A DNA stretch of 64,000 bases from Candidatus Avedoeria danica. GTDB lineage: Bacteria; Chloroflexota; Anaerolineae; Epilineales; Epilineaceae. The position numbers and the translations under genes were made by a program. Position 1 is the stretch's first letter, and each line of letters opens with the position of its first letter. A model generated the notes under the pieces. It saw nothing but the letters and a program-made list of their open reading frames with translations. It was not told where the DNA came from and ran no database searches. The DNA lies in NCBI GenBank assembly GCA_016703025.1, contig JADJCV010000004.1, forward strand, positions 1,775,412-1,839,411. The letters are read 5' to 3'. Shown piece after piece: positions 11,408 to 43,837 of the stretch.

Positions 11408-11410
11408 CCT

Positions 11411-24127: not shown

Positions 24128-24202
24128 GGTGCCCTCCCGCGACGACTATAGCACGACCGCGGGGCCGCATCGGCCGACGCGGAGCGCGCCGGGAATCGCG
24201 CC

Positions 24203-24237: not shown

Positions 24238-24246
24238 CCTGCCCGT

Positions 24247-25335
24247 ATGCGCAACCTCGAGCCCGACATCGTGCTTCGCGACCGCTACCGCTTGGTCGAG
24301 CTCGTCGGTCAAGGCGGTGCCGGCGCGGTCTGGCGTGCGGACGACCTGCGTTTGGCCGGCCGCGTCACCGCCGTCAAGGCGATCCTGCCGGACGTCGGCT
24401 CGGCGGCCGACCGGGCCGATCGCCAGGCACAGTTCCACCGCGAGGCCAGCATGTTGGCGCGCCTCGACCATCCGGCCCTGCCCAAGGTCTCGGACTATTT
24501 CGAGGACGACGGGACGGACTTCCTGGTCATGGACTACGTCGACGGGCCCGACCTTCGCCAGGTCGTCGATGCCGCGCTGGCGGCGGGCGAGCTCCTCGAC
24601 GTCGAGCGTGTGCTCGGCTGGGCCGATCAGCTCCTCGACGCCGTCGCCTACCTGCACGCCCAGTCGCCGCCCGTGCTGCACCGCGACATCAAGCCGGCGA
24701 ACATCAAGCTCGTGGCGGGCGAACGGATCAAGCTCGTCGACTTCGGCCTCGTCAAGGCGATGGACCCGGCCGACCCCCGGACGCTCACCGTGGCGCGCGG
24801 CGTCGGATCGCTGCCCTACACGCCGCTCGAGCAGTATGCCGGCGACACCGGCCACACGGACGTCCGGGCCGACCTCTACGCCGTCGGCGCGACGCTGTAC
24901 CACCTCATGACCGGCCGGCCGCCGGACACCGCCCAGGACCGCTTCCTGCTGCCCAATGCGCTCACCCGCCCGCGCCGGCTCAACCCCGACGTGCCGTCGC
25001 GCGTCGAGTCCGCCATCCTGACGGCGATGGCGCTCCACCCCGAGCGCCGGCCGCCGACGGCCGAGGCGCTGCGCGCGCTCCTCGTCGGCGACGCGCCGGT
25101 CCTCGGCAGCGTCGAGCTCGGTACGGCGGGGCTGGCGTGGCGGCAGGCGATCTGGGACAACGCCGGCCTGATCGCGCTCGTCGCGCTGCTCGTGTTGCTC
25201 ACCGTCGTCGCGACCTGGCAGGCGACCGCCGCGAGCGCGCCGGCCGCGGCGCCGACGGCAAGCGCTGGATCCACCGCCACCGCACCGATCGCCACGCCGA
25301 CGGGGCCAGCGGCAGCAGCGCCAGCAGGAAGCTGA
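24247..25335 (+). CDS. Hanks-type Ser/Thr protein kinase with C-terminal TM anchor
   Basis: Gly loop GQGGAGAVW, VAVK-like lysine, HRDIKPANI catalytic loop, DFG, and SLPYTPLEQ. A TM helix lies near the C-terminus. Confidence 0.8.
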   Translation: MRNLEPDIVLRDRYRLVELVGQGGAGAVWRADDLRLAGRVTAVKAILPDVGSAADRADRQAQFHREASMLARLDHPALPKVSDYFEDDGTDFLVMDYVDGPDLRQVVDAALAAGELLDVERVLGWADQLLDAVAYLHAQSPPVLHRDIKPANIKLVAGERIKLVDFGLVKAMDPADPRTLTVARGVGSLPYTPLEQYAGDTGHTDVRADLYAVGATLYHLMTGRPPDTAQDRFLLPNALTRPRRLNPDVPSRVESAILTAMALHPERRPPTAEALRALLVGDAPVLGSVELGTAGLAWRQAIWDNAGLIALVALLVLLTVVATWQATAASAPAAAPTASAGSTATAPIATPTGPAAAAPAGS

Positions 25336-27967
25336 GCACCGGCGCCTGGTAAGCCGGGTTCCAACTGCGCGGCCAGAGTCGGCCGCCGCTCGGCAGCCAG
25401 CTGGGCATGCGCAACCCGCCGACGAGGACGAGCAAGTAGCCCGCCAGCCCGCAAGCGAGGCTGAGCAGGAAGAGCCGCACCGCACGTGAAGGCACGCGCG
25501 GTCCCTCGCCGGCACCGAAGACGATCACGCCGGCCAGCAGGATCAGCGTCAAGCTGAAGAGCAGGATGCTCCAGTCGGCCGGCAGCTGTCGGATCGCCAG
25601 CGGCCCTTGGCCGGCGGTCGGCGTCGGGACGTCGAGGACGCTGCCGCTGACGTGGACGACGAGCGGTGCGCTGGCCAGCCCGCTGTCCAGCACGGCGGTG
25701 ATCTCGATGTCGCCCTGGCGATCCGCCGGGAGCGTGACGGTTGCCCGGCCATCGACGGTCTGCCCGACGACGTCGCGCAGGTAGACGTCCTCCGCGGGGT
25801 CGTAGCCGCGGACGGTGACCGTCGTGCCGTCGGGCACGGGGTGGCCATTGGCGTCCCGGATCTCGCCCGTACGCACCGTGATCCGCCCGCCGTGGGCGAC
25901 CGCGGCGTCCGGCCGGCCGCCGACCAAGCTGAGGTCGATCACCTGGCCGGATGCGGGGAGGAGCTGGGTGGCGAGGTCGTAGCCGGCGCCCGGCACCGAG
26001 ACCGGGCTCGCCCCGACCGCCGCCTCGTCCCCGAACACGGCGCGCAAGGCCACGCGCACGAACGGCCCCCCCGGACTGTAGACGGCATAGTAGGCGGCCA
26101 GCCGGGAAATCTCGCTGGCGTCGAGGCCGTACGGCGCGTCGAACGCAACGGCCACCAGTCGCTGGCCGGCCGACTCGGTCTCACTGGCCTGCAGGAACAG
26201 CCGCGGCGCATCCGAGCCCGGCGCCTCGGTCGGCCGGACGTCCCGCATGAAGAAGACGATCCAGTCGGCCTGGGCGACACCGCGCGCCACTTCGTCCTGC
26301 CGTGCCGCGCTCAACGGCGGCACGAGCGATGGGTTGTTCTCGGCAGCGATCCGGCCGGTGGCCCCGAGCCATGCCCGAAGCTCGCGGGCGGTCACGACGC
26401 CGACGTCCTCGGCGCGGACGATTCGCCGCGTGCCCGACCCCGTCGGGCCGTACGTCAGCAGGCACGTCGCGAGGACCTCGTCGGGGTCGAGCACCCACTG
26501 GGGCGGACACCCGTCGCACTCCCGGCTGTCGCGCGCGTCGACGACGAACAGCAGGCGATCGCCGGATTGCGGCGACGGCACCGGGGCACGGCCACCGCCG
26601 GCCGTCGGCGGGGCGAACAGCGTGAGCGCGGCGCGGGCGACGGCCTGCGCATCGTCGCCCCCCAGTCCGGTGGACGCAGGCGCGGCCTCGGCATCGACGG
26701 CGACGCCGTCCGGCGTGGCCGCAGCGTACAGCGCGCGCTTGCGGGCCAGGACGCGGCGCAGCGCCCGGTCGACGGCCTCGCGAACGTTGTCGTCCTCCTC
26801 GTAGGCCGCGGTGAGCCAGGCGAGCGCCTCCTCGATCTCCGCGGGCGAACGGGTCGGGTCGTCGGGCACGTCGAAGCCGGACAGGTTGAGGACGTCGTTG
26901 CCGGCCAGGAGCGCCTCGCGCACGACGCGGCGCACATTGAACGCCGCTCCCTGCGGGTCGGTGTAGCGCCGCACGCCGGCCAGCCCGAGTCCGGGGCTGA
27001 AGAGGAGCCCGCCGCCCTCCCGCCAGGCATCGAGGCTCGGTAGCTGGCCGCGCAGGTAGGCAAGGCCGCTGCCGTCGAGGGACAGCGGCCGATCGATCTG
27101 CCGCTGGACACCGCGGAACCGGACGTGGGTCGTCACGAGCGCGTCGACGACGCTGGAGCGGTTGTCCCGCGGCTCGACAACGGCCACGAACGGCACGAGC
27201 TCGGTGCGCCGCAGGTCGTCCAGGCTGCTCTCCACGATCGGCAACTCGGCGGTTTGGCTCCGGTCGGCGCCGCCGACGCCCGGGAAGCTGCCGGCGGCCA
27301 CGGCCACCCGCCCGTCGCTGCCGCGGTGGATGCCGCCGACGATCTCCCGGCCGAGCTTGGCCACCCACGACGGGTTGCCGCCGAGCGCCCGGGCGCCGAG
27401 GTCGCCGGTGCTGCCCGGGCGCGGCTGGGCGACGACATCCAGGTTGGGACCGAGCCAAAGGTTGACGCCGACGGCCCGCAGCTCACGCCCGACGACCTCG
27501 CCGACGCGCCCGGCCAACGCCGGGTCCCACGTGGCGCCGAGGGCCATCGCGCTCGGTACGTCGGTCATGCCGCCGCGCAGCGGGCTGAGCGGGAACGCCG
27601 CCCCGTCGCTGTCGACGGCAATCCACAGCGGGACGAACGCCGCGTGTCGTGCGGCGCGCGCCTGCAGCGCGTTCGCCAGCAGCGCCACCTGGCGCGGCGT
27701 GTCAGGTGCGTTCAAAAAGTTGCCGGCGCGCGGGTCGACGATGACGCCGCCGACACCCTGATCGACGAGGCGGGCGATCGCGCGATCGTCGGACACGCCG
27801 TCGCCCCGGAACGGCACGAGGAGGAGCTGGCCGACGCGCTCCGCGGGGGTCATGTCGGCGATCAGGGCGTCGATCTCGCCGGCGGCCGTTGCCGCTCGGG
27901 GCGGCACGGCGGTCGCACAGGACGCGGCGAGGGCCGCGGCGAAGCAGAGAAGTGTTCGGGTGCGCAC
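25199..27967 (-). CDS. Glycoside hydrolase family 3 (NagZ-like beta-N-acetylhexosaminidase) with a large C-terminal extension and TM helices
   Basis: GH3 N-terminal domain (TPAERVGQLLLVPF, ..VGGVIV..). The start is uncertain: the GTG at 27967 gives a plausible signal peptide. The 3' end overlaps the convergent kinase gene by about 137 bp. Confidence 0.6.
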   Translation of the reverse strand: MRTRTLLCFAAALAASCATAVPPRAATAAGEIDALIADMTPAERVGQLLLVPFRGDGVSDDRAIARLVDQGVGGVIVDPRAGNFLNAPDTPRQVALLANALQARAARHAAFVPLWIAVDSDGAAFPLSPLRGGMTDVPSAMALGATWDPALAGRVGEVVGRELRAVGVNLWLGPNLDVVAQPRPGSTGDLGARALGGNPSWVAKLGREIVGGIHRGSDGRVAVAAGSFPGVGGADRSQTAELPIVESSLDDLRRTELVPFVAVVEPRDNRSSVVDALVTTHVRFRGVQRQIDRPLSLDGSGLAYLRGQLPSLDAWREGGGLLFSPGLGLAGVRRYTDPQGAAFNVRRVVREALLAGNDVLNLSGFDVPDDPTRSPAEIEEALAWLTAAYEEDDNVREAVDRALRRVLARKRALYAAATPDGVAVDAEAAPASTGLGGDDAQAVARAALTLFAPPTAGGGRAPVPSPQSGDRLLFVVDARDSRECDGCPPQWVLDPDEVLATCLLTYGPTGSGTRRIVRAEDVGVVTARELRAWLGATGRIAAENNPSLVPPLSAARQDEVARGVAQADWIVFFMRDVRPTEAPGSDAPRLFLQASETESAGQRLVAVAFDAPYGLDASEISRLAAYYAVYSPGGPFVRVALRAVFGDEAAVGASPVSVPGAGYDLATQLLPASGQVIDLSLVGGRPDAAVAHGGRITVRTGEIRDANGHPVPDGTTVTVRGYDPAEDVYLRDVVGQTVDGRATVTLPADRQGDIEITAVLDSGLASAPLVVHVSGSVLDVPTPTAGQGPLAIRQLPADWSILLFSLTLILLAGVIVFGAGEGPRVPSRAVRLFLLSLACGLAGYLLVLVGGLRMPSWLPSGGRLWPRSWNPAYQAPVLSFLLALLPLAPSAWRSVRWRWIQRLPSAPRPARSRRSPARSRRR

Positions 27968-28603
27968 GGTGGGCAAGGATAGGGAATCCGCGGCCGAACG
28001 CCAGCGCCGGCCGCGCGGGGCGGTCGGGCGCCGACGCCGTGTCGGCCGTCGGACGCGACCGCACGACCCGGTTGACAGAATGGCCCGCGGCATGTTAATG
28101 TAGTTGTAACTCGCACGCTCGCACGGCGGCCGACGAAGGGTTGCGACAACGCCCTTCACCGAGTTGTGCGCGTGGACCTGAGGGCCGACTCGGGGTCGTT
28201 TGGCGGTCGAGCCGGCCCAACGACAGTCTACGGAGGTCATCCGGCCCGTGTGCGCAGCGACCGGTGTTATGCATGAAGAGAGGCGCCTGGCGACGAAGTC
28301 CTGGGTCTGCCCCTGCCCGAGCTCTGACGGGACCGCGCGCCGGCGCCTCTCGCCCGTGCATAACGGTGTTGGGAAATTGGGCGTTACGCACGGTTGTCGA
28401 TTGCGACTTCATTCCTGGACGATCCCCCATGCGTAGGGAGTGACGCAATACGGCCGATAGACACGGACCGCGGAGCGGCCCGTCTTCTCAGTTCGGGTCT
28501 CCTCGGTGCGATTGCGTTGAGGAGCGACGAGTCCGGCAATGGCGGGCTGTCAGAGATTGCCGTTTCCGCTGCCCCGGACGGCGAACGCGATGCGGAGGAA
28601 CAA

Positions 28604-31600
28604 GGCATGAGCCATCGACACGCGGCGGTGTTGCTGACAGCGGGAGCCGCCCTGCTGGTTGTCCTGACCGGCTCGACCACGACGCGCGGGGCGGCGCCAA
28701 GCACCGCCGACCACCCGACTTCCCTTCCGGCCCCGTGGTCGGCCGACGGCGGCGGCTTGCCGGGGGTGCTCGGTCCAGGCGACGCCGCGTCGGCACCCGC
28801 CGGCCTCGGCCTCGTGCCGCGATCGCGCGGCGCCGGTTCGCCGGGCGTGGCGGCCGGTGGGCGGGCCGCCGAGCCGCTGCAATCGGACCAGGTCGACGAC
28901 CCGGGCTACATTCCGAACCGCCTCGTCGTCGGTTTTCGTCCGGAGGCGACCGACGAGTACAAGCGCAAGCTACACGAAAAGTACGGCGGTCAGGTCATCG
29001 ACCAGATCAACAACCTGAACATCCAGGTCCTGCGGGTCACGGACACGGACCTGCTCACCCAGGTGCGGGCCTATCAGTCCGAAGTGCAGGTGGCCTTTGC
29101 CGAGCCGGACTACTTGGCCCACATCCTCGGCAGCCCCGACGCGGTGGCGCCCCGTGCGGACACCGCCGCCGGGCAGGCCGGCGGACGGAACCCACTGGCC
29201 CGACTCGGCCTCCAGATCACACCGAACGACCCGATGGTCGGCTCGCAGTGGCACCACACCAAGATCGAGTCGGCGGCCGCGTGGGACCGCCAGCGCGGCG
29301 CTGGGATCACGATCGCCATCGTCGACACGGGCACGAACTGCAGCCATCCGGATCTGGCCGGCAAGTGCGTCGCGGGCTATGATTATGTCAACCGAGACAA
29401 CAACCCGGCCGATGACCAGGGCCACGGCACCCATGTCGCCGGCATCGCGGCGATGCAGACGAACAACGGGGTCGGCGGCGCCGGCGTCGGTTGGGACAGC
29501 CGGATCATGCCGGTCAAGGTGCTTGACCGAACGGGCAACGGCGGTCATTCCGCGATCGCCAGCGGGATCACGTTCGCGGCCGACAACGGCGCGCAGGTGA
29601 TCAATATGAGCCTGGGCGGCGCGTTCACATCCTCGGCGCTCCGGAATGCGGTCGACTATGCGATCCAGCGCGGCGTCGTCGTCTTGGCGGCGGCCGGCAA
29701 CGAGAATACGTCGAACCCGAGCTATCCGGCGGCTTACAACGGCGTGATCGGGATCTCGGCCACCTCGCAGTCGGATCAGCGGGCCAGCTTCTCGAACTAC
29801 GGCAACGCGATCGACGTCGCCGCGCCCGGCGTCGCGATCCTCTCGACGGTCATGACGGGCGGCTACCAGCCATGGAGCGGCACGAGCATGGCCTGTCCCG
29901 TCGCGGCCGGGCTCGCAGCGCTCCTCGTGGCCCAGAACCCGAGCCGTACGCCGGCCCAGGTCGAACAGATCCTCGAGCAATCGGCCGACGACCTCGGGGA
30001 TGCCGGCTGGGATCCGTATTTCGGCTGGGGCCGGATCAACGCCCGCAAGGCCCTGAACCTTGCGCCCGGCACCACGACGCCCGGCACGCCCGAGGGCGGC
30101 GGCACGAGCACCGCCCCGCCGCCGATCCAGGCCACGGCAACGCCCTCCGGCAACTTCGTTCTCCAGGTCGAAGAGCTGATCAACCTGAAGCGCGCCAGCG
30201 CCGGCCTCAACCCGCTGGCCTCGAGCCAACAGCTGCGCAACGCCTCGACCCGCCACTCGAACGACATGGCGTCCGGCAACTTCTGCGGCCACGACGGCAC
30301 GGATGGCAGCACCGCCCAGTCGCGGATGTTGGACGCGGGCTACGGCCAGCCGTACGGTGAGATCGTGGCCTGCGGCCTCGTGTCGCCGGCGGCGGCCGTC
30401 GAAGCATGGTGGAACAGCCCCGCGCACAAGGCGATCATGTTGTGCACGACGTGCACCGAACTCGGCGCCGGGTACCGCAACATCGGCACGTACGGCCATT
30501 TCTGGACGGTCGACTTCGGCCGCCGGTCCGTGTCGGGCGCCACGCCGACGCTGGCGAGCACGGTGCCGCCGCCGGTGACCGGCACCGCTGCGCCGTCCGC
30601 AACGCCGCCGCTGCCCACGCCGACGCTCCACGCGCCGCCGGGTGGCGTGAACGTCGAGATCGCGCCGCGCAACAACAAGGCCGGCTGGGTCGTGAGCAAC
30701 GTGCCCAACCAGAACTTCTTCACGGATGAGGAGGACACGTTCACCGGAACGTACGCCAACCGGACCTATCACGGCGCGGCCCAGTTCGAGCTCGGCGTGA
30801 TCCCGGCCGGCGCGACGATCAACAGCGCCCGGCTGGAGATGATCGGCCGGGACGCCTCGTTCCTCGGGGTCGGCGGCACATGGACGGTGAACCTGCTGCG
30901 GACGGACATCGACGGCGGCTTCGCCGGCCAGGGCTACACCGGGATTCACAATGCGGCCATCGACGTCACGCTGATGCCGCTCCTCGGGCGCGACCTCTTG
31001 GGCGAATCGCAGAAGAACGCGTTCAACATGGACGATGGCGCGCTGAACGTGCTCCGCGCGCGGCATCTCGGCTCGCGCGCCCTTTCGATCCGGATGGACG
31101 GGCCGCCCCCCGGCGGCAACGTCACGAACCTCTTCACGTGGGACACCGGCTACGGCCAGACGACGCGCTACGCCGGCGTGCGGCTGTTCGTGAACTACAG
31201 CACGGCCGGTAGCGGTCCCCCGCCGTCCGCCACGCCGTCGCCGACCGAGCCGCCGGCACCGAACACGGCCACGCCGACCGTCGGCGCATCCCCGACCCCG
31301 ACCACGACGCTTGTCCCGCCGACAGCGACGTTCACCGCACCGCCGCCGCCGCCGACCGTCACACCGTCGCCGACGCTCGTCCTGCCGCCGACGCGCGAGC
31401 CGGACGGCAACGAGATCGACATCCTGCCGGCATGCCTCGACGTCGGCTATGTCCGATCGTACGAGGCGTTCAACCACTTCTGCGACGACGACATGTTCAC
31501 CGGCTATTATCAGGGCCGGATCTACTTCGGCGGCGTTCAGTTCGACCTCTCGGCCGTGCCGGCCGGTCGGGCGGTGCGCAGCGCGCGGCTCCTGATGAAT

Positions 31601-32392
31601 GGCCTGTCGACCCGCTACCTGTCCGATGCGGGCAATGGCGTCTGGGAGGCGAACCTGCTCGAGGCCGCCGTCGACGGCGGCTGGCGCGGCGTGTCGTACG
31701 AGTCGCTGCGCAGCGCCAGGATCTCGTCCAAACTCCAGCCGCAACTGCACCAGTACGACCTTGGCGTCGGCATCCAGAACGTCTTCACATTCGACGCGAC
31801 GCAGCTGCGCGAGCTCGAGTTCCGCAAGGAAGCCACCGGCAAGGTCAGCTTCCGGATGGACGGCCCGCAGGTCGGCGTGAGCAACGTCATGGACTGGGAC
31901 ACCGGCTTCGGCGCCGGGCAGCGGAACCCGCCGATTCTGCGGGTCACGCTCGGCCCGCCCGGCAGCGGCGAGCCGGTGCCGACGAAGTCAACGGACGACT
32001 TGGCGAAGATCAACGAGATCGTGGCCGAGATCAACCGGGTGCGCGTGGCCAGCGGCCGCGGCACGGTGGCGGTGTCCAGCGAGCTGCAGTCCGCGGCCGG
32101 CACGCACAACACGGACATGATCCGCAACAGCTTCTTCAGCCACACCGGCAGCGACGGCTCGTCGCCCGCCCAGCGCGTCGCACGCACCGGCTTCCCCGCC
32201 ACGGCAGTCGGCGAGCTGCTGGCCGCCGCCAACGGCACGCCGGCGGTCGTCGTGCAGGCCTGGCTGGATCAGGGGCAGCGGGACACCGTCCTCGACCCGA
32301 CGTACACCCAGATCGGCGCCCACTACCAGTTTGTCCGCGCCGTCGGCTACCAGCATTACTGGACGGTGGTGCTCGCCGCACGGGCCCGTTGA
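28604..32392 (+). CDS. Subtilisin-like S8 peptidase fused to two CAP (SCP/PR-1) domains and two copies of a ~150-aa module (DNRLRE-like?)
   Basis: GGAGGA sits before the ATG at 28604, followed by a signal peptide. The Asp/His/Ser triad contexts are DTGT, HGTHVAG and GTSMA. CAP-like segments lie near aa 560-680 and at the C-terminus, joined by Pro/Thr linkers. The module motif is FDLSxIPxGAxIxSARLEMIG. Confidence 0.8.
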   Translation, partial: GMSHRHAAVLLTAGAALLVVLTGSTTTRGAAPSTADHPTSLPAPWSADGGGLPGVLGPGDAASAPAGLGLVPRSRGAGSPGVAAGGRAAEPLQSDQVDDPGYIPNRLVVGFRPEATDEYKRKLHEKYGGQVIDQINNLNIQVLRVTDTDLLTQVRAYQSEVQVAFAEPDYLAHILGSPDAVAPRADTAAGQAGGRNPLARLGLQITPNDPMVGSQWHHTKIESAAAWDRQRGAGITIAIVDTGTNCSHPDLAGKCVAGYDYVNRDNNPADDQGHGTHVAGIAAMQTNNGVGGAGVGWDSRIMPVKVLDRTGNGGHSAIASGITFAADNGAQVINMSLGGAFTSSALRNAVDYAIQRGVVVLAAAGNENTSNPSYPAAYNGVIGISATSQSDQRASFSNYGNAIDVAAPGVAILSTVMTGGYQPWSGTSMACPVAAGLAALLVAQNPSRTPAQVEQILEQSADDLGDAGWDPYFGWGRINARKALNLAPGTTTPGTPEGGGTSTAPPPIQATATPSGNFVLQVEELINLKRASAGLNPLASSQQLRNASTRHSNDMASGNFCGHDGTDGSTAQSRMLDAGYGQPYGEIVACGLVSPAAAVEAWWNSPAHKAIMLCTTCTELGAGYRNIGTYGHFWTVDFGRRSVSGATPTLASTVPPPVTGTAAPSATPPLPTPTLHAPPGGVNVEIAPRNNKAGWVVSNVPNQNFFTDEEDTFTGTYANRTYHGAAQFELGVIPAGATINSARLEMIGRDASFLGVGGTWTVNLLRTDIDGGFAGQGYTGIHNAAIDVTLMPLLGRDLLGESQKNAFNMDDGALNVLRARHLGSRALSIRMDGPPPGGNVTNLFTWDTGYGQTTRYAGVRLFVNYSTAGSGPPPSATPSPTEPPAPNTATPTVGASPTPTTTLVPPTATFTAPPPPPTVTPSPTLVLPPTREPDGNEIDILPACLDVGYVRSYEAFNHFCDDDMFTGYYQGRIYFGGVQFDLSAVPAGRAVRSARLLMNGLSTRYLSDAGNGVWEANLLEAAVDGGWRGVSYESLRSARISSKLQPQLHQYDLGVGIQNVFTFDATQLRELEFRKEATGKVSFRMDGPQVGVSNVMDWDTGFGAGQRNPPILRVTLGPPGSGEPVPTKSTDDLAKINEIVAEINRVRVASGRGTVAVSSELQSAAGTHNTDMIRNSFFSHTGSDGSSPAQRVARTGFPATAVGELLAAANGTPAVVVQAWLDQGQRDTVLDPTYTQIGAHYQFVRAVGYQHYWTVVLAARAR

Positions 32393-32460
32393 CGGTCTGA
32401 CGGACCGGACGGCGCAGGCGATCAGACCGATTCACCGCCGCTTCGATTTCTGACGACAAG

Positions 32461-32498
32461 ACGGCGCCCTGGATCCCGCAAGGGAACCAGGGCGCCGT
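32461..32498. terminator. Bidirectional rho-independent-type terminator (ACGGCGCCCTGG-N14-CCAGGGCGCCGT, followed by TGTT)
   Basis: 12-bp perfect stem between the convergent S8 gene and the secreted-protein gene. Confidence 0.5.
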
Positions 32499-32525
32499 TG
32501 TTCGCGTCGTGAGGACGAGCTGCCG

Positions 32526-34460
32526 TTACGGGATCGGGGTCTCGAAGGCGGACACCGCCGGCCGCGTGCGCGACGCGATCGGCTGCGAGCGCACGAAACC
32601 GCTCGTGCGCAGTGCGATCGGCAGGAAGATCGTGCCCGTGCTGACGATCGACACGCCCGCGACCGGGGGCTTGCCGACCTCGACGATGTTCGAGTTCGCC
32701 TTGGCCCCATCGGCCTCGACCTCGACGATGACGTCGCCGTCGCGACCGTCCGACACGATGTAGACACCGGCCAAGTTGGACTGGCTCGGCGGCACGATCG
32801 TCCGGCCGCGGTCGGTGATCAGGTCGATCGACGTGCCGGAATTGACGACCTCGGGCTCGTTCTGGCCGGGCACGCGACGCTCGTACGCCAGGTAGCCGAC
32901 GCTCGGCGGCAGAAGGCGGAGCTTGACGGGGGTCCCGTCGGCCACGTTGTTCCCGTTCAGATCCTTGATCTCGACGGTCACGCCGCCGCGTCGATCCCGG
33001 ATCCGGTGGATCGCCTTCGGGTTGACGATGATCCGCATGTTCACCGCCGGGCCGACGACGTTGAACTTCGTTGCCGCCTCGATGTCGCCGGCGTCGGCGC
33101 GCAGCGTGACTTGGCCGTGATCGGGCTGCGGCGCCGGGACGGCGCTGCCGGCCGTATACGTCACCTCGGCCACGCCCTCGACCGGCGTCACCTCGGCCGA
33201 GCTCAGCGTCCCGAACCCGGTCGGATCGAGCGAGAACTCCACCTTGGTCCCGGACACGGGCAGGCAGTTGCGGTCCGTGACGAACGCGCTGAAGCGCGCC
33301 TGATGGTTCACGCCTGGTGCGGTGACGCTCGTGGCGAATACGGCCGTGGCACCGTCGGGATACGTCAGGCGCAGCCCGCCGAGGTTGCCGCGGTCCGTCT
33401 GGTCGGGGCTCGGGAAGATGAGCGCCGGTGCGCCCGGATCGCCGACGGTCCAAAGCGCCGTGTCGGCCGGCGTCGTACGCTGCTGCCCGCCGACAACGTC
33501 GAACAGGTCCGTGTTGTACTGGACGCACGCCTGCAACCGGCTGCCCTGGTAGCTGGCGGTGGTGCGTGGGATCGCCCAACCCGTCGTGTCGCTCGGCACG
33601 GCCGCGAGGCCGGTGGCGACCTTGGTCTGCGCGGTGGCGATGAGGGCCGTCGCTTCGGCGACGATCATGCAACCGCGCGCCGGGTCCGGCTTGATCGGCG
33701 GCCCCTCGTTGGCCTGCTGCGGCTGGAGGAGGCCGGGCACCTGCTGCAGCTTGACCAGCGCCTGTTCCAGCGCGTTCCGGGCCGCCGACAGGTCGGGCAC
33801 GGCTGCGGCGCCGGCGCGGCCGGGCGCCATGTCCGGCAGGCCAAGCATCGCCTGCAACGTGCGGCTGAGCTCACTCGTCGTCAGCGCCGAGGCGTCGAGC
33901 GGATCGAGGATCGTCGGCAGCCAGCGCTGGTAGGGGTGCGGGGGCGAGGCCGTCGGCGTTGGCTGGCCGGGCTGCGGCGTCGGCAGCTGGATCGGCCACG
34001 TGTCCGGCGGCGGCGGGAAGTTCTGGCACTTGGTGCCGACCGAAGCGATCGACTCGGACAACGCCAGCTGGGTCACGCTGATCGCCGATCGATAGCTCGA
34101 CACGAAGTCGGCGGCCGAAACGGCGATGGAGCGCTTGCCGGCACCGGCGCTGAGCGCCGGCAGCGACTGCTTCTTGACCACGACCCCGGAGAGATCGCGC
34201 AGCTGGACCACGAACTGCTCACCGCCGGCGGCATTGTCGTAGGCCACGACGGCGAAGAGGCTGGTGGCGGCTGCACCGAAATTGCGTCGGGGGTCACCAT
34301 CACGCACGTCGCTCATGTAGAGCTGGGCGTTCACGCGATCGGTCTGGGCGAGGGGCGCGGCCGCGGCCGGGTGGGCCGGGCCGCCGACGACCATCAGGAC
34401 ACCGATGGCGACGCCGAGGGTCGAGAGCACGGTGACCAGGACGGCGGACAAACGTGGCAT
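32526..34460 (-). CDS. Secreted protein with Ig-like (Big-type) repeats
   Basis: AAGGAG sits 9 nt before the ATG at 34460, followed by the signal peptide MPRLSAVLVTVLSTLGVAIG. A Pro-rich linker and beta-rich repeats follow. Confidence 0.6.
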   Translation of the reverse strand: MPRLSAVLVTVLSTLGVAIGVLMVVGGPAHPAAAAPLAQTDRVNAQLYMSDVRDGDPRRNFGAAATSLFAVVAYDNAAGGEQFVVQLRDLSGVVVKKQSLPALSAGAGKRSIAVSAADFVSSYRSAISVTQLALSESIASVGTKCQNFPPPPDTWPIQLPTPQPGQPTPTASPPHPYQRWLPTILDPLDASALTTSELSRTLQAMLGLPDMAPGRAGAAAVPDLSAARNALEQALVKLQQVPGLLQPQQANEGPPIKPDPARGCMIVAEATALIATAQTKVATGLAAVPSDTTGWAIPRTTASYQGSRLQACVQYNTDLFDVVGGQQRTTPADTALWTVGDPGAPALIFPSPDQTDRGNLGGLRLTYPDGATAVFATSVTAPGVNHQARFSAFVTDRNCLPVSGTKVEFSLDPTGFGTLSSAEVTPVEGVAEVTYTAGSAVPAPQPDHGQVTLRADAGDIEAATKFNVVGPAVNMRIIVNPKAIHRIRDRRGGVTVEIKDLNGNNVADGTPVKLRLLPPSVGYLAYERRVPGQNEPEVVNSGTSIDLITDRGRTIVPPSQSNLAGVYIVSDGRDGDVIVEVEADGAKANSNIVEVGKPPVAGVSIVSTGTIFLPIALRTSGFVRSQPIASRTRPAVSAFETPIP

Positions 34461-34653
34461 GTGGGGCATCTCCTTGGGTACGGATGAAGGCAACCAGCGA
34501 GCCTGACTGCGGACGCAGAGGATCGCAGGCGCGGCGTCCGCGCGGGCATCACATGCCAGCAGCGGCGCCGGAACACACGGTGGTCTTGACGTCAAGACGC
34601 ACAGGACGCGGTCAAGGTCACGGGGCGCGTCCCGCGCGTCACGGAAGGGCGCA

Positions 34654-36015
34654 CTATAGCCGGCGGCGGAACCAAAGGGCGAGCCCCACCAACACCGCGA
34701 TGCCGGCTCCGAGGACGATGAGGTTCGGACCGCCCCCGCCCGCCGGTGTCGAACCGCTCGATGTTGCGTTGCCCGCCGGCACGGTGAACGTCGGCAGCGG
34801 CACGCTGCCGGATGCCTCGTTCCCGGCGGCCGACCCGCCCGCCAGCGGCTGCGCCCCGCCGGCATTCTGCGGATCGCTCGCACCAGGCGGCACGGCGGCG
34901 CCCGCGCCGTCCTGCGGCGTCGGGAGCCCGAGCGCGACGGACGTGGCCGCCTTGCTCTCGACGAGCGCCGCCATCTGGGCGGACTGCGTCGCCACGACGG
35001 GCTTGCCCACCTCGACAGCCGCCGTGCTGCGGCCTGCCTGCGTTGTGTCGGCGGACACGGCTGTCGTCGGGACGGGCGTGTTCTGTCGCGTGCCCGCGCC
35101 GGAACCACCGCCACCGCCGGTGAACGTGGCCGGCAGCCGGGGCGTCGCCGACGGCGCCGCCGTGACTTCGGCGGCGGCGTTGTTCGGGCTCTTGTTCGAC
35201 GCCTGGATGACGACGAGATCCGCGCTCCCGGCCGCCGTGGAGGCCATGCCGAGCTCGTCGACGGTCACCGAGACGGTGTAGGGCGCGCTCTCGGCGTACA
35301 ACGCCGCCATCGTGAACGACGTGAGCTTGCCGACCTCCTCATCGAGTTCGCCGGCCGCGGTGGCGAGCTCGATCGCCACGGGCGCGAGCTGCGCCAAACG
35401 GGCGCGCGTTGCCGTGACATCGGTCACGGCGATCCCAAGGATGTCGGACACCGCTTCCTGCACCTCAGGGTAGAGGCGGTCGATCGTCTGCTTGGCCCCG
35501 AGCGCCGCGCCGGTCAAGCCGGCGCGGTCCATCGGCACGAGCACGCGCCCGAGAGAGCGCAGATCGCGCTCGAGGCTCGTCCGCGCGTTCACGATCTCGC
35601 CGTCGACGCGGCGCGTGTCGGCGCCCATCTCGGCCAGTTCGAGGATGTCGTCGCAATAGAGTTCGACCAAGCCGGCCGCGCCGTGGACGAGATCGGTGGC
35701 CCTCAACTCCACCCGGGCCGTGCCGGCGCCGCTGTAGCGCTCGGCCTCGAGATCGAGCAGCGGCTCGCCGCTGTTGTCGAAGACATCGACCTTGATCCGC
35801 GTCTTGTTCGCATCCGTGTAGTCGAACAACGCCCAGGCGCTCGTCGCATCGGTCGGCACGTTGCCGGACTCGACGGCGTCACCGCCGGCCTCGGTCGTCG
35901 AGATCCGGACATTCGAGACCTTCGTGATCGCCTGCGCCGATTGCGCCCACAGCGGGGTGAGAAGCAGCGCCGCGGCAAGGCCGGCGCCTGCGAGCATGCG
36001 TCGCATTGGGTACAT
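34654..36015 (-). CDS. Secreted protein, paralog family member 1, with C-terminal GGPN-TM-RRRL tail
   Basis: Signal peptide ..TPLWAQSAQA. The N-terminal beta-domain is homologous to the two downstream-listed paralogs. The C-terminus reads ..GGGGPNLIVLGAGIAVLVGLALWFRRRL. Confidence 0.6.
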   Translation of the reverse strand: MYPMRRMLAGAGLAAALLLTPLWAQSAQAITKVSNVRISTTEAGGDAVESGNVPTDATSAWALFDYTDANKTRIKVDVFDNSGEPLLDLEAERYSGAGTARVELRATDLVHGAAGLVELYCDDILELAEMGADTRRVDGEIVNARTSLERDLRSLGRVLVPMDRAGLTGAALGAKQTIDRLYPEVQEAVSDILGIAVTDVTATRARLAQLAPVAIELATAAGELDEEVGKLTSFTMAALYAESAPYTVSVTVDELGMASTAAGSADLVVIQASNKSPNNAAAEVTAAPSATPRLPATFTGGGGGSGAGTRQNTPVPTTAVSADTTQAGRSTAAVEVGKPVVATQSAQMAALVESKAATSVALGLPTPQDGAGAAVPPGASDPQNAGGAQPLAGGSAAGNEASGSVPLPTFTVPAGNATSSGSTPAGGGGPNLIVLGAGIAVLVGLALWFRRRL

Positions 36016-36087
36016 CGTCCACACGTCCTTGTCTGTATTCGTTGCGGTTCGGTCGGCACGGCGTGCCGCGAGCCGCGGTCGGGGCGA

Positions 36088-36804
36088 TCAGCGCTGCTTG
36101 AGCGCCGACATACCAGCCCACACCACGATTGCCAACAACACGATGACGCCAAGGCCGCTCCCGAGGAGCAGGAGCTGGCTCGGCTCGCCCGCCCGCGGCG
36201 CGGCGGCATCGTTGCCGCCGGCGGGCGGATTGACCACGGGCGCCGCCGGATTGACGCCACCCGAGTTCGCGTCGACCGGCACGTTCTGGACGTTGCTCGC
36301 CGGGATCACCTCGGCATTGCCGACGAGGAGCGTCAGGCCGTCGGCCGGGCTCTCCCGTCCGTCGACCTCGACGTAGGCGTTCACGAGGTACTCGGCATCC
36401 GCGAGGGGTTCCTCGAAGGTGAACTCGACCGAGTTCGTGCCCGGCACCGAGAGCTCCGCCTCCTGCATGCCAGCGATGACCCCTTGCGGCGCGATGACCT
36501 TGATCACGGCGCGCCGGGCGGCCGTGCCGTCGTACTCGAACCACACCTTGAACTGCTTCGTGCCGGCGGGCGCCTTGAAGAGCTTCTCGCCGGCCGGTGC
36601 CGGCTGCTCCCAGACCGTCTGGCCGGTGTCGTCGCCGATGCGGATGTTGCCGACGGTGGCGCGCCCGGACTGCGCAAAGACGGGCACGACGAGCGTGCCG
36701 GCAGCGACGGCGGCGCACAACAGCGCGCCGATGCGGCCAAGCCACACACGCAGGAAGGCGCCTTGGTCCGCACGCAGGTCGGCACGATGGCGGTGGATGC
36801 TCAT
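36088..36804 (-). CDS. Secreted protein, paralog family member 2, with PEP-CTERM-like tail
   Basis: Signal peptide, then an N-terminal domain similar to member 1 (VGNIRIGDDTGQTV..FKVWFEYDG..). The C-terminus reads ..AGEPSQLLLLGSGLGVIVLLAIVVWAGMSALKQR. Confidence 0.6.
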   Translation of the reverse strand: MSIHRHRADLRADQGAFLRVWLGRIGALLCAAVAAGTLVVPVFAQSGRATVGNIRIGDDTGQTVWEQPAPAGEKLFKAPAGTKQFKVWFEYDGTAARRAVIKVIAPQGVIAGMQEAELSVPGTNSVEFTFEEPLADAEYLVNAYVEVDGRESPADGLTLLVGNAEVIPASNVQNVPVDANSGGVNPAAPVVNPPAGGNDAAAPRAGEPSQLLLLGSGLGVIVLLAIVVWAGMSALKQR

Positions 36805-37079
36805 GCGTTTCTCCTCGCGCCGGCGCTGGCGCGCGGCGCATGATCTGACGATGTCGAGATGGACGTCGCCGAGCGCCCAGTGTCGGGGCACGGCGTAAGC
36901 CTTGGCTGAAGCCCGGGTAAGCGCCGCCTGAGCGGACGGTGGCCCAGGCATGGCGCGCCGCAGCGGCCATCGTCCCTACGGTGCGACCGAGGGCAAGGGA
37001 TGGCGATCATATCACCCGGCGACTCTGACGCCAAAAGCCGGACACGGTGGCGCGCCCGCCCTGCCGCGCTGGCTTACGC

Positions 37080-37976
37080 TCAGCGCTGGCGGAGGATTGC
37101 GCCCTTGCTCACGACCGGCAGGTGGATGCGGGCCGGCCCCCACACCCAGAACTCCGCGGTGACGGCGATATCGCCCGCCACCTCCACCTGGACCACAAAG
37201 GTGTCCGTCGCGTGGTGCCCGGTCGCCGGGAGCGGCAGATCGCGCTGCTGAGCCGCCTGCGCGCTCAGGTCCGTCGACGCCAGCACGACCTCGCCGAGCA
37301 ACGTATCCACCTGCGCCGCCCGACGCTGCTTGCCGGCGACATCGTCCGGCGGCAGCTCGATCGCCCGCGCGAGGATGAGGATCGCGTCACGCAGCGACCC
37401 GTCGATTTCGGCGACCGCGGCGGCAGGCGCCGGCGGGAGATCGATGCCGCCCAGCAGCTCCGCCGTCCACACCAGCCGCAGGACGGCCGCCTCCGCCGAC
37501 CGGAGGTACTCCTGCACGCCGACGCTGCGCTCCGCGGCCTGCTTCGCGCTCTGCTTGGCATCGCGCGCATCGGCGCTCAAGCCGCCTGTGAGCACGCCGT
37601 ACACCGCCGTACCTTCGATGTCGATCGTCGCGGTGCCGTCGCCGCTGTAGCGCGCACCGTGGCTGAACGCCGTCACGCCGCCGCGGCCCTTCACGACGAC
37701 CCGGATCTCCTGGTCGGCCGCTTGCTCGTACGCAAAGCGGGCGTACACATGGCGCGTGCCTTCGTCGAAGAGGGCGGCCTCAGCCGTGGCGGTGGACGTC
37801 GGAACCGGCGGCGGGCCCGCGTCGGGCCGGGCGGCCACATAGAGGGACGTCACGCGCACGGCGGTGGTGTCCGCCTCGGCCGGCCGCCCGCCGGTGATCG
37901 CGGCGAGGGCGGCGATGCCGAGTGCGGCAGGGCACGCGCGGCGCAGCAGGCGGCCGGCAAGGGTCGGTCCGGTCAT
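37080..37976 (-). CDS. Secreted protein, paralog family member 3
   Basis: Signal peptide MTGPTLAGRLLRRACPAALGIAALAA. Shares the ..RYSGDGTATIDIEG.. region with member 1 (..RYSGAGTARVELRA..). Confidence 0.55.
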   Translation of the reverse strand: MTGPTLAGRLLRRACPAALGIAALAAITGGRPAEADTTAVRVTSLYVAARPDAGPPPVPTSTATAEAALFDEGTRHVYARFAYEQAADQEIRVVVKGRGGVTAFSHGARYSGDGTATIDIEGTAVYGVLTGGLSADARDAKQSAKQAAERSVGVQEYLRSAEAAVLRLVWTAELLGGIDLPPAPAAAVAEIDGSLRDAILILARAIELPPDDVAGKQRRAAQVDTLLGEVVLASTDLSAQAAQQRDLPLPATGHHATDTFVVQVEVAGDIAVTAEFWVWGPARIHLPVVSKGAILRQR

Positions 37977-38172
37977 CGGGATCCTCCGTCTGGGGTCGCG
38001 TGGCGGGCAGGTCGGACAAGACACACGCCGGGGCGGAGCGCGTCGAGCGTTCGAGAGTCCGGTGATGGTAGTGCGTGCGGCACGGCGCAAGCAAGGTCGG
38101 TGACGCCGCGGTTTCGATCACGGGCACGGCAGCCGCAGATCGCCGTTACGGGGTCGGCCTCACGGACAGCCT

Positions 38173-41103
38173 CTAACGCAGTCGGGGCGGACGCCGGACG
38201 GTGAATGCGCGCACGACGAGCGGCAAGTAGACCCGCGGCCCGTGCTCGGGCGAGAGCCCGAACAGGACGGTCGTCGTCGTCCCGTCCGTGACGAAGGCGC
38301 CCTGTTCGGCCGGGCCGGTGACCACCCAGCCGGAGGGCGGCGCGACGCTCACGAAGAAGACGCCGGTCGGGAGGGTCGCACAGACAGGACGGTCCTCGCG
38401 GCTGCGGAGCTGCCGGTAGGTCGTGTGGCGGTCCGTCAGCACGTCGATGAGGACGTCGCTCTGCGCCGCCTCACCGGCGTCGCGGAAGCCGTCGCGGTTG
38501 CGGTCGTCGAACACGTCGACGCAGACCGTTCCTTGCGGGCCGTTCACGGTGGGTTCGGGCGTCGGCGAGAGGGTCGGGGCGCGCGTCGGCGGGAGCGTCG
38601 GGCCGCGGGTGGGCGTGGCGGTCGGACGCGGCGGGCTCGGCGTCGCGCTGGGCGTCGTCGGCGCGCGGGCGCCGAAGGCGAACGTCACGGACGCTTCGGC
38701 CATCGGTGCGCTGAAGTCGTATGCCCGCGCTCCGGAGGCCACGAGGTTGCGCGGCAGCTCGACGAGCTCGAGGCGGTAGGCGCCGTCCGCGAGGCCGCTC
38801 CAGCAATGATCGGGATCGTTCGAGCCGTCCGTCGTCCACGTGATGAAGACGCCCGAGAGCTGGTGCGTCAGCCGAAGCGTTGCCCCGGCCAGGAACCGCT
38901 CGCCGGCGTCGCGCCGGCCGTCGCCGTTGCGGTCGTCGAAGGCGATGATGCACGCCTGGCGGCCGGTAAACGTGGCGGGATCGCGCGTCGGGGTCGGCGG
39001 CCCGCTTGGCGTGTGGGTGGCCGTCACGCCGGGCGGCGTCGGCGTGGCGGAAGGGGTGCGCGGATCGACGGTCGGGCCGTCGGTCGGCGGCGGGACGGTC
39101 GGTTCGGGCGGTCGGGTCGGAGTGGCGCTCGGCGTCGCACTGGGCGTTTGGGCGAGGGCGGTCAGGGCGAGCCACGTGGCCGTGGCGCCCGGCCCTGCCG
39201 ACGCCGTGACGGCCGGCGCCGCGGTCATCGTCGCAATCCAGGCCGAGGTAGCGGTCGCGGCGGCAGCCGTCAGGGTCGGTCCGGCGATGACCGTCGCGGC
39301 GACCTCGGTGCGGAACGCCGCGATCGTGGCCGTGGCGCCGGCGACGGCGGTGGCGGTCTGGGCGATCGGCGGGACCGTGGCCGACGGCGTCGGGGACACG
39401 GACGGCGTCGGCGACAGCGTCGGCACGGCCGAGACCGTCGCGATCGATGTGGACGGCGCTGTGGCGGTGATCGACGGCGTGGCGCTCGAGCCGCCGCCCG
39501 TCGTCGGCGACGTCGGCGGCGTCGGCGACGCGGTCGGGACAGGGGTCAGCGTGGCGGCGAGGCCGATCGCGTAGCTGACGACGAGCGCCGGGCCGCTGGC
39601 GGGATCCGGCGGGGAGGGCTCGCGGTTGTAGACGTCGACGCCGGAGTGCCACGCCGCCAGGTTGTTCTCGTCGGGCAGCGGACCGTCGACCCGGAACGAG
39701 GCGCGGCCCGTCCCGTCGACGCGCGCCTCGAGGAGCGGCAGCTGCGCCGGCGCGAACCCGAACGCGTTCTTCCGCCCGGGCAGGAGGTCGGTCTCCTCGA
39801 GCGAGAGCCCGATCTGGGCCGCGATGGCCGCCGTGCTGACGGTCGTGAACGTGGCATCGCGCCAGCCCGCATCGATCTGCTCGTTCAGCAGGGCGAGCTT
39901 CCACTCGCCGGTCTTCAGGAACTCGTTCGTCTGGCCGATGAGCTCGACGCGCGCGCCAAGGATGTTCGCCTCGGGCGGGATCTCGGACAGATCGAACTGG
40001 ATCATCCCGTAGTGCGGGTTGTCGCCGCGGCCCCACATGCCGGCGTAGATCGAGGCGTAACCCAGGTGGTTCTTCCGGTCGCGCTGCGCCGAGACCTTGG
40101 GCACGTAACCGACGTCGGCGGGCGCGGGCCGGAGCGTGATCGTGTCGAACGACTGGGCGGGCGGCGGCGTCGGCGTCACCGTCGGCGGCGGGCCGGCGTA
40201 CGTCGGCAGCGGCGTCGGGGTGACGGTGGCGTTGCCCGCCAGCCACTGGGCGGCGTCGGTGTACTCCGTCTTGCAGTCGCGCGGGCAATACTTCACGGTC
40301 ACCGTCGCGCGGTCGACGACCTTGATGATCCCTTGCGCCTGGTTCGATTCCTGCGTCGAGAACCGCAGCGGCTGGACCGCCCGGAACAGCGGGAACGATG
40401 CGGCGTCCTCGACGAGCTCGACGAGGATGCCGACCGGATCGGCGTCGCTGACGACGCGAACGGTGATCCGGTCCTTCTTGGAGGCGTCGAGGTTCGCCGC
40501 CGGGTCGCGCGCCGTGATGTCCGCCTGCGCCGCAGCGCCGTAATAAACGTCGGCGTCGAAGGCGACGTAGAGGCCGACGTACCACTCGATTCCGGCGCCG
40601 ATGCCCGAGAACGGACCCTCGGGCCAAACCGCCGACGTGTAGTACGGGCTGCCGCCGGGCGGAATGCCGTTCTTCTTCTCGAACGTGATCGTCTCACAGC
40701 CCACACCACTGTACACGATGCCGTCGGGGTGGTTGACGAACTGCCGGCCGCCGCCCGAGTCCTTGACGAACACGCGGACGAGGTCCTCGAACGAGTGGCA
40801 GTAGATGATGTGGACGGTGTCCGTGCCCGCCGGGAACTCGGTGACGCCGGGGCCCTGCATGCAGTGGTTGTCGTCCAGCTGGGCCTGGTAGGTCTCGTCG
40901 CACATGTGGAGGTGCCAGGCCGGCGTGATGACCGGGGTCGTGCAGTACGGCGGGCAGGCCTGCGCGGCGGCGCGCGGCGGCACGGCCGTGGACACGACGT
41001 CCAGCACGAACAGCAGCGCCGACACCGCAATGCACAGGCCGAGCGGCCCGAGGCGGCGTGCGGCGCTCCGCAGGGGGGCGGAGGGCTGCGGGAAGGTTGC
41101 CAT
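38173..41103 (-). CDS. Large secreted multidomain protein with a Cys-rich N-terminal domain, the shared ~150-aa module, Pro/Thr/Ala linkers and two SdrD-B-like Ca-binding domains
   Basis: Signal peptide, then ..MIQFDLSEIPPEANILGARVELIGQ.., which matches the module in the S8 protein. Two C-terminal FDDRN[GR]DG[RF]RDAGE repeats follow. Confidence 0.75.
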   Translation of the reverse strand: MATFPQPSAPLRSAARRLGPLGLCIAVSALLFVLDVVSTAVPPRAAAQACPPYCTTPVITPAWHLHMCDETYQAQLDDNHCMQGPGVTEFPAGTDTVHIIYCHSFEDLVRVFVKDSGGGRQFVNHPDGIVYSGVGCETITFEKKNGIPPGGSPYYTSAVWPEGPFSGIGAGIEWYVGLYVAFDADVYYGAAAQADITARDPAANLDASKKDRITVRVVSDADPVGILVELVEDAASFPLFRAVQPLRFSTQESNQAQGIIKVVDRATVTVKYCPRDCKTEYTDAAQWLAGNATVTPTPLPTYAGPPPTVTPTPPPAQSFDTITLRPAPADVGYVPKVSAQRDRKNHLGYASIYAGMWGRGDNPHYGMIQFDLSEIPPEANILGARVELIGQTNEFLKTGEWKLALLNEQIDAGWRDATFTTVSTAAIAAQIGLSLEETDLLPGRKNAFGFAPAQLPLLEARVDGTGRASFRVDGPLPDENNLAAWHSGVDVYNREPSPPDPASGPALVVSYAIGLAATLTPVPTASPTPPTSPTTGGGSSATPSITATAPSTSIATVSAVPTLSPTPSVSPTPSATVPPIAQTATAVAGATATIAAFRTEVAATVIAGPTLTAAAATATSAWIATMTAAPAVTASAGPGATATWLALTALAQTPSATPSATPTRPPEPTVPPPTDGPTVDPRTPSATPTPPGVTATHTPSGPPTPTRDPATFTGRQACIIAFDDRNGDGRRDAGERFLAGATLRLTHQLSGVFITWTTDGSNDPDHCWSGLADGAYRLELVELPRNLVASGARAYDFSAPMAEASVTFAFGARAPTTPSATPSPPRPTATPTRGPTLPPTRAPTLSPTPEPTVNGPQGTVCVDVFDDRNRDGFRDAGEAAQSDVLIDVLTDRHTTYRQLRSREDRPVCATLPTGVFFVSVAPPSGWVVTGPAEQGAFVTDGTTTTVLFGLSPEHGPRVYLPLVVRAFTVRRPPRLR

Positions 41104-41158
41104 GGCTCGCGGGTTGAGACGTGCAGGACGGCGCCGGCGTTACGGTCAGCCGATGGAC

Positions 41159-41229
41159 GGATCGGGTGAGGGATCGGGGGAGGGATCGGGGAGGGATCGG
41201 GTGAGGGATCGGGTGAGGGATCGGGCAAA
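41159..41229. repeat. Tandem array of 6 copies of a 12-bp unit GGATCGGG(T/G)GAG
   Basis: Copies start at 41159, 41171, 41183, 41194, 41206 and 41218. The array lies in the divergent intergenic region between the 976-aa gene and clpC. Confidence 0.8.
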
Positions 41230-41263: not shown

Positions 41264-41300
41264 TCTTCATTGGCGGGCCGTCTGGCCGCCGCTTATACTT
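41264..41300 (+). promoter_or_regulatory. Candidate clpC promoter (-35 TTGGCG, 17-nt spacer GGCCGTCTGGCCGCCGC, -10 TTATACT)
   Basis: Hexamers read about 40 nt upstream of the clpC start. The spacer is a partial palindrome. Confidence 0.3.
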
Positions 41301-41335
41301 GCGGCCAGTGCGATCAAGTGAGGAGACGCCCGAAC

Positions 41336-43834
<2,499 letters not shown>

Positions 43835-43837
<3 letters not shown>

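Follow-up and report, generated by a model that had tools for sequence, protein, structure and literature searches.

A conserved gene cluster for predicted surface proteins and a co-localised subtilase in Candidatus Avedoeria danica

Here we analyse a 64,000-nt window (W) of contig JADJCV010000004.1 from Candidatus Avedoeria danica, in which six genes that we call A to F lie between a GH3 glycosidase gene and clpC and form a co-conserved cluster. Gene A encodes a secreted S8 subtilase and genes B to F encode exported proteins, and across related loci from other genomes and metagenomes (L001-L011) the gene order, sequence motifs and promoter elements of this cluster are conserved. The reading that we tentatively favour is that the cluster specifies a lineage-specific, envelope-associated and stress-regulated surface assembly with a co-localised protease, found in Ardenticatenales and related Anaerolineae. 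Wastewater sludge and sediments are rich in filamentous Anaerolineae and Ardenticatenales, almost all of which are uncultured and have a poorly understood envelope. What is new here is the conserved cluster itself, an orphan domain, a C-terminal tail and a pair of promoters; the headline novelty of a first-pass annotation of this DNA, a repeated module of about 150 aa, dissolves into a divergent version of a known fold.

A six-gene block conserved beside clpC

All six open reading frames (ORFs) are present in W, with a G+C content at third codon positions (GC3) of 0.85-0.93 that is of coding type in a window of about 72% G+C, and the codon-position G+C indicates one coding frame per gene. GH3 is read from the minus strand, A from the plus strand, B, C, D, E and F all from the minus strand, and clpC, the divergent neighbour at the cluster boundary, again from the plus strand (Table 1). 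A one-genome-per-species scan returned nine loci with relatives of F, all in Anaerolineae-type metagenome-assembled genomes (MAGs), and a metagenome scan with A added two further full loci (L010 and L011); the MAGs behind the related loci are of Ardenticatenales, Anaerolineales or Caldilineae origin. As far as the contigs extend, we see the order clpC, F, E, D, C, B, A preserved (nine loci: W, L001-L004, L007, L008, L010 and L011), and in L010 and L011 GH3 is syntenic as well. Across the loci ClpC identity runs from 99% to 73%, and that of E, D and C falls as low as 25-39%, a divergence that is usual for surface proteins that evolve fast. Only L002 (99% ClpC identity) retains the four genes beyond clpC, and no match to them was found in the roughly 7 kb past clpC in L003 (92% ClpC identity), nor in L006-L009. 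Because the genes beyond clpC have already been replaced at 92% ClpC identity, the six-gene block is better conserved than its surroundings. The first-pass annotation had proposed a dedicated system in this neighbourhood, and the order kept in nine loci, together with the replacement on the far side of clpC, bears out a co-conserved cluster as opposed to a chance neighbourhood; nor are the paralogs scattered in related genomes, an outcome that the same annotation had named as counting against its proposal.

Every product carries an N-terminal hydrophobic signal-like segment (seen in A, B, D and F), a C-terminal anchor, or both, in agreement with the export predicted at first pass, where the word 'giant' overstated proteins of 976 and 1262 aa. 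In the databases all the cluster products are named 'hypothetical protein', and the 90% cluster of F is labelled 'hypothetical protein [Ardenticatenales bacterium]'. An Rfam search of the locus gave no matches, and a simple terminator scan of it found nothing exceeding background.

Table 1. Positions of the genes, domains and regulatory elements discussed, numbered from the first letter of the window
Feature	Positions	Strand	Evidence and remarks
GH3 glycosidase, NagZ-like	25199..28240	-	Glyco_hydro_3 E 2.5e-26; C-terminal Ig-like domain; hydrophobic membrane segments 892-910 and 923-941
74-nt hairpin, 5' end of GH3 mRNA	28277..28350	-	directly downstream of GH3 promoter; invariant apical core GCUCGGGCAGGGGCAGACC
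GH3 promoter, ECF-sigma-type (putative)	28360..28388	-	CGTAAC-N17-CGTTAT; same two blocks at equivalent place in 7 of 7 loci that cover the region
Gene A, secreted S8 subtilase	28604..32392	+	1262 aa; propeptide, CAP, module, module, CAP
A, fervidolysin-type N-terminal prodomain	28880..29110	+	PF22148, E 3.6e-14
A, S8 catalytic domain	29297..30031	+	PF00082 above threshold, 210 bits, E 6e-62
A, CAP (PR-1/YkwD-like) domain 1	30173..30517	+	PF00188; TIGR02909 YkwD below cut-off
A, module copy 1, DNRLRE/CBM96-fold	30635..31201	+	NF033679 match at residues 695-746, 22.4 bits
A, module copy 2, DNRLRE/CBM96-fold	31397..31954	+	copy used for structure modelling
A, CAP domain 2	31991..32374	+	second PF00188 stretch; NF052539 DalA-like at residues 1130-1257, below cut-off
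Gene B	32526..34460	-	N-terminal region aligns to C/E-type domain, then plausibly Ig-like (Big_1-type) domains; tail IFLPIALR (32607-32630)
Gene C	34654..36015	-	E paralog, then ~170-aa low-complexity linker, C-terminal transmembrane helix 431-449, RRRL tail
Gene D	36088..36804	-	N-terminal half is beta-domain shared with C and E, no helical insertion; linker; C-terminal transmembrane helix 211-229
Gene E	37080..37976	-	modelled beta-sandwich at residues 41-121 and 260-277, inserted four-helix bundle 122-243 (nt 37248-37613); disordered tail with IHLPVVSK (37104-37127)
Gene F	38173..41103	-	976 aa; signal peptide, CPPYC, Cys-rich N-domain, module, linker, two SdrD_B; tail VYLPLVVR (38209-38232)
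F promoter, ECF-sigma-type (putative)	41118..41144	-	CCGTAAC-N17-CGTC; 15 nt upstream of F start codon
clpC	41270..43837	+	real start probably near 41333 (MMPFDRFTE); Pfam, ortholog comparison, promoter scan

The subtilase and the repeated module

Gene A, whose start codon is supported by a GGAGG-N7-ATGAGCCA arrangement conserved in its orthologs, had been described at first pass as an S8 subtilase bearing a pair of CAP domains and a repeated module in two copies, and both Pfam and BLASTP agree. Its Asp, His, Asn and Ser motifs are intact (VDTG 240, HGTHV 274, NMSLG 334 and GTSMA 426), and because this set is retained A should be an active subtilisin-type protease. The CAP family as a whole is matched above threshold (101 bits, E 7.5e-29, in two stretches), and the equivalog models YkwD and DalA stay below their cut-offs. 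We also considered A as a mycosin, the protease of type VII secretion systems (T7SS), and rejected this assignment, as TIGR03921 reached 238.6 bits against a cut-off of 278.75 and no ESX or T7SS genes are found among the neighbours. A literature search on Ardenticatenales subtilases found nothing relevant.

The module is about 190 aa long. Residues 678-866 and 932-1117 of A match residues 317-511 of F (BLASTP E 4e-17 and 9e-25, respectively), where the module spans 39571-40155 and is followed by a Pro/Thr/Ala linker of about 200 aa, and the signature quoted at first pass, which runs from FDLS to DGP, is visible in the three-way alignment. That annotation took the module for an unknown domain, and here it has to be revised: fold comparison reveals the beta-sandwich of the solved CBM96 members 7vbo and 8wab, at a sequence identity of 8-13%, and weak matches to DNRLRE recur through the family, so that a known family, which the annotation itself had listed as grounds for giving up its claim, is in part what we find. 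In the literature CBM96 is equated with the DNRLRE domain (PMC9971899, PMC2447325), which was first described in archaeal cell-surface proteins (PMC2447325) and, by the account of PMC9971899, in S-layer proteins. The copies in the window score 22.4 and 13.6 bits against NF033679 (DNRLRE), below its curated 34-bit cut-off, and 39 of 46 diverse members of the module family match that model at E<=0.1 (best E 1.6e-8). Against PF24517 the family is again below the cut-off, with one of the 46 matching (E 0.009), and the module itself gave no match to Pfam models. When its sequence was searched against the PDB only spurious Diablo/Smac and carrier-protein matches came back, the relationship being visible by fold only; no sequence-level alignment to 7vbo was detectable, and the CBM96 ligand residues (Lys10, 22, 25, 27, 31, Arg36 and Tyr159; PMC9971899) are not mappable onto the module. 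We conclude that the module is a divergent subfamily of the known carbohydrate-binding fold DNRLRE/CBM96, with conserved motifs of its own (NHFGDDD, QFDLS, FRxDGP and WDSGYG).

The family is large: among 1.84 billion cluster representatives an exhaustive hidden Markov model (HMM) search identified 566 module proteins at E<=1e-3, 117 of them at E<=1e-30; a word-indexed protein search with the module returned just two, which are near-identical fragments. In a sample of 68 members the partner Pfam domains are PD40 propellers (21), CAP (12), S8 (about 11) and DPPIV_N (4), together with PKD, M6, M28, M24, M4, M20 and M36, and Anaerolineae proteins with TolB-like names carry the module too. With about 11 of the 68 bearing S8 and 12 bearing CAP, the S8/CAP combination of A is a recurrent, clade-specific design.

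Predicted surface proteins B to F and their C-terminal ends

The second module protein of the locus, F, was likewise recognised at first pass, and its two SdrD_B stretches are above the Pfam cut-off (PF17210, 41.2 bits vs 29.7, E 2e-10, the first at 38734-38943); precomputed annotation places SdrD_B on most F orthologs as well. Mature F starts with CPPYC (residues 49-53, about 40945-40959 on the minus strand) after a predicted signal-peptidase site AQA, and AQACPPYC is invariant in every ortholog. Eight cysteines fall within its first ~280 residues, which suggests a disulfide-rich or metal-binding N-terminal domain. Homology of this domain to the one shared by B to E was considered on the strength of a BLAST match (E 0.004) and is unsupported, the hhalign probability being only 2-20%.

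The three mutual paralogs reported at first pass, C, D and E, are a narrower set than the one we find. By BLAST their relationship is weak (E 0.02-0.9), but profile-profile comparison with hhalign, using ortholog groups from the related loci with signal peptides removed, gave probabilities of 99.9% for C-E (E 1.5e-33, 226 columns), 95.5% for D-E and 87.6% for C-D. The C-E relation spans the whole of E and is not confined to a shared N-terminal domain, and B also belongs to the set (B-C 96.3% over 207 columns, B-E 95.2%). Moreover, in distant loci the gene at the C position matches E better than it matches C, an independent sign of the C-E relationship. An AlphaFold (AF2) model of E, built from a shallow 10-sequence alignment, has a predicted local distance difference test score (pLDDT) of 71 overall and above 90 in a four-helix bundle, which in the model is inserted into a beta-sandwich; a similar insertion is predicted for C through its paralogy with E, and for B by alignment. 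Comparison of the E model with solved structures returned nothing similar beyond generic four-helix bundles, and profile searches with the C/E family found no PDB sequence and no Pfam relative. We treat the beta-sandwich of B to E, with its helical insertion in B, C and E, as an orphan domain family. The Big-like repeats that had been assigned to B recur at the same position in three of the five orthologs scanned, but all of the matches are sub-threshold: Big_1 (PF02369) reaches 21-22.5 bits in the window protein and two orthologs, where the gathering score is 34.9, and a third ortholog has Invasin_D3 at 20.4 bits. An Ig-like fold for these repeats is plausible.

Near their C-termini B, E and F share a tail with the consensus R-[IVL]-[YF]-L-P-x-[AV]-x-[RK]. 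In E and F 7-20 residues separate it from the end of the protein, and in B about 33. The tail is present in 7/7 B, 15/17 E and 32/55 F sequences (the F entries include many fragments), against a background in which 0.28% of internal 45-residue windows contain a similar pattern, and in W and L001-L009 it is confined to these three proteins. Two or three unrelated proteins of the module family have the tail at their end as well (P0074, P0132). In C and D the protein ends in a transmembrane helix followed by basic residues; this helix is strongly conserved among D orthologs (LLAIVVWAG), and the C-terminus of C is conserved in its orthologs too. The domain common to B to E is thus found with alternative anchors, a transmembrane helix in C and D and the tail motif in B and E.

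When compared with LPXTG-type sortase substrates, the tail reads [YF]LPxxx[RK] and no hydrophobic helix comes after the motif. The cluster genes and their immediate neighbours include no identified sortase or exosortase, and a literature search for Chloroflexi sorting signals found no description of the tail. A bolder proposal, which we put forward as speculation and consider doubtful, is that the tail is a new Chloroflexota envelope sorting or docking signal, which might be processed by A or by an unlinked enzyme or might serve as a donor strand for C and D, and that the orphan domain of B to E is the building block of an undescribed surface assembly under ECF control.

Promoters, competing readings and known systems

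The spacer between F and clpC is unconserved save for two blocks, CCGTAAC and CGTC, which are invariant in nine aligned loci with a spacing of N16/17 and stand 15-45 nt ahead of the F start codon. Each locus has a single copy of the motif, immediately upstream of F in every case, and besides W these loci are L001-L004 and L006-L011. Upstream of GH3 we find CGTAAC-N16/17-CGTTA in 7/7 loci that cover the region (W, L002, L003, L007, L008, L010 and L011). In the whole window CGTAAC-N16/17-CGT is observed three times, with 0.55 expected, and all three instances are on the minus strand, intergenic and within the cluster. The third of these, upstream of E (38126-38150), is not conserved in relatives and is treated as chance or lineage-specific. 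Promoters of extracytoplasmic function (ECF) sigma factors, whose regulons serve envelope stress, have the hallmark AAC at -35 and CGT at -10 (PMC5758882). The blocks at F and GH3 carry this hallmark, from which we infer that the two genes would depend on such a factor. The same promoter type upstream of both suggests that GH3 and F are co-regulated. A sigma-70-like element upstream of E, CCTTGC-N17/18-CTACCAT (38050-38090, minus strand), is conserved in the F-E spacers of L001-L003, and a sigma-70-like site, TTGGCG-N17-TATGAT (37006-37034), lies upstream of D. Because E and D seem to have sigma-70-like promoters of their own, the five genes from F to B probably do not make up one operon.

Two side observations concern the region between F and clpC. 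A tandem repeat between the two promoters (41155-41225; 12-nt unit GGATCGGGTGAG, 5.7 copies) is absent from the 92%-identical relative L002, and is for this reason a recent lineage-specific expansion. The longest clpC ORF has a TTG start at 41270 that falls inside a conserved sigma-70-like promoter, TTGGCG-N18-TATACT (41270-41299).

On the other side of the cluster, the best NCBIfam match of the GH3 protein is a beta-N-acetylhexosaminidase (E 1.3e-13, below cut-off). The hairpin of its leader is kept in W, L002, L003, L007, L008, L010 and L011, and its consensus fold has 22 pairs, three of which covary (in the outer stem), with a minimum free energy (MFE) of -49.3 kcal/mol and z -3.8. Since a U-G pair occurs in 5/5 sequences, the GH3-sense strand is the folded one. 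The hairpin had no match in Rfam at E<=1 and may represent a new leader element with a cis-regulatory or mRNA-stabilising role. Adjoining GH3 are an FHA-domain/OmpR-type regulator and a Ser/Thr protein kinase (23492-25335), both of which are retained in L011 (57% A identity) and might be regulators linked to the cluster. Further away, 4938-11410 and 53729-56922 hold ordinary-looking genes for LysM, SPFH/Band-7, a DUF2207 membrane protein with a Gly-rich tail, a DivIC-like protein and cytochrome c oxidase subunits II and I.

How might these parts work together? In the surface assembly that we tentatively favour, C and D would be tethered to the membrane via their C-terminal transmembrane helices, and the tail may dock or sort B, E and F at the envelope. 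F would form a long stalk, with its SdrD_B domains and an N-terminal domain of its own. The module in F and in the convergently transcribed A may bind an envelope or matrix glycan, and with A and F placed on the same polymer, surface proteins would be within reach of A for trimming or turnover. F and the membrane-anchored, NagZ-like GH3 would be switched on together through their ECF-type promoters, as part of an envelope-stress or envelope-remodelling regulon.

Several observations weigh against this proposal. The module lies below the curated cut-offs of both NF033679 and PF24517, and its partners are peptidases and not polysaccharide lyases, with single cases only of CBM_20 or a cellulose-binding domain; on these two counts glycan binding has to be extrapolated from the fold. 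The tail does not have the length to cross a membrane and no candidate sorting enzyme goes with it, and beyond the helical bundle the confidence of the E model is only moderate. We found no ECF sigma gene within the window and no ECF blocks in the upstream region of A, and with E and D apparently under sigma-70-like promoters co-regulation covers F and GH3 only. Finally, all the related loci belong to one clade of MAGs, and part of the synteny may reflect shared ancestry.

The alternative that fares best, although on the whole unlikely, is that A is a surface-retained nutritional exoprotease whose modules tether it to particulate or matrix substrates, and that B to F are unremarkable surface proteins, functionally unconnected with it. 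The mainly peptidase-related partners among the 68 sampled members suggest a general accessory module for extracellular peptidases, and A has a promoter region of its own that lacks the ECF blocks; on the other hand A adjoins B to F in every covering locus even though identity among the surface genes is down to about 30%, and F carries the module without any peptidase domain. We think it improbable that B to F instead make up a structural coat, an S-layer-like or sheath-like lattice on the filament with C and D as membrane anchors and A as a maturation protease. Paralogous beta-sandwich subunits with two kinds of anchoring would suit such a lattice, as would the descriptions of DNRLRE in archaeal surface and S-layer proteins, but the Pfam and NCBIfam matches of the cluster proteins include no SLH domain or other S-layer hallmark, and E resembles no solved structure beyond generic four-helix bundles. 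Residues 180-316 of F do match the Kustd1514 S-layer glycoprotein family (E 0.0035), a weak and partial match at 14.7 bits against a cut-off of 1400. Less probable again is that the module is no glycan binder and serves the protease as a prodomain-like regulatory or chaperone domain, with a fold resembling the TGF-beta prodomain; a CBM96 structure gave similar secondary matches to BMP9 and pro-activin entries (PMC9971899). That there is no system at all, and that gene order is kept only through the close kinship of the MAGs compared, all of them from the three groups named above, seems very improbable when the genes past clpC are lost by 92% ClpC identity, the six-gene block persists to 73% and two ECF-type promoters bracket it.

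None of this overturns current ideas, and its value lies in annotation and in testable envelope biology for the clade. The handles it provides are the co-conserved surface proteins as a set, the family of orphan domains, a candidate C-terminal targeting motif and a divergent subfamily, CBM96-like, found on many of the phylum's extracellular peptidases. Another is the defined, putative ECF-type promoter, which could serve to trace the remaining regulon genes together with their sigma factor.

Several parts of the cluster can be set beside known systems. Among the solved CBM96 structures 7vbo binds alginate and 8wab chondroitin sulfate, and the module shares their fold but no sequence-level similarity above the cut-offs; unlike characterised CBM96 domains, which belong to carbohydrate-active enzymes such as polysaccharide lyases, it is joined to peptidases, CAP domains and PD40 propellers. 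Similar to fervidolysin-type multidomain secreted subtilases, A has an N-terminal prodomain, an S8 domain with the full triad and C-terminal accessory beta-sandwiches, and it differs from them in joining two CAP domains and two DNRLRE-fold modules in one chain. F resembles the MSCRAMM SdrD in its SdrD_B domains separated by Pro/Thr-rich linkers, an arrangement typical of stalks that project a binding domain, but it has neither LPXTG anchor nor A-region nor SD repeats, and the full-length MSCRAMM_SdrD model gives 12.6 bits vs 2500. Like the LPXTG/sortase and PEP-CTERM/exosortase signals, the tail of B, E and F is a short conserved C-terminal motif with a basic residue, and unlike them it lacks TG and PEP and is not followed by a hydrophobic membrane-spanning stretch. 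One N-terminal domain combined with alternative C-terminal anchors, as seen in B to E, recalls the 'choice-of-anchor' families of Haft. Compared with the sigma-M/X/W/V ECF regulons of B. subtilis the present case lies in Chloroflexota, with no sigma gene linked to the locus and a dependence read from sequence alone. The F and GH3 promoters have the architecture of those regulons (PMC5758882), in which a -35 block that closes with AAC is followed, after a spacer of 16-17 nt, by a -10 of CGTC or CGTT, and here too the targets are envelope proteins and a cell-wall-type glycosidase.

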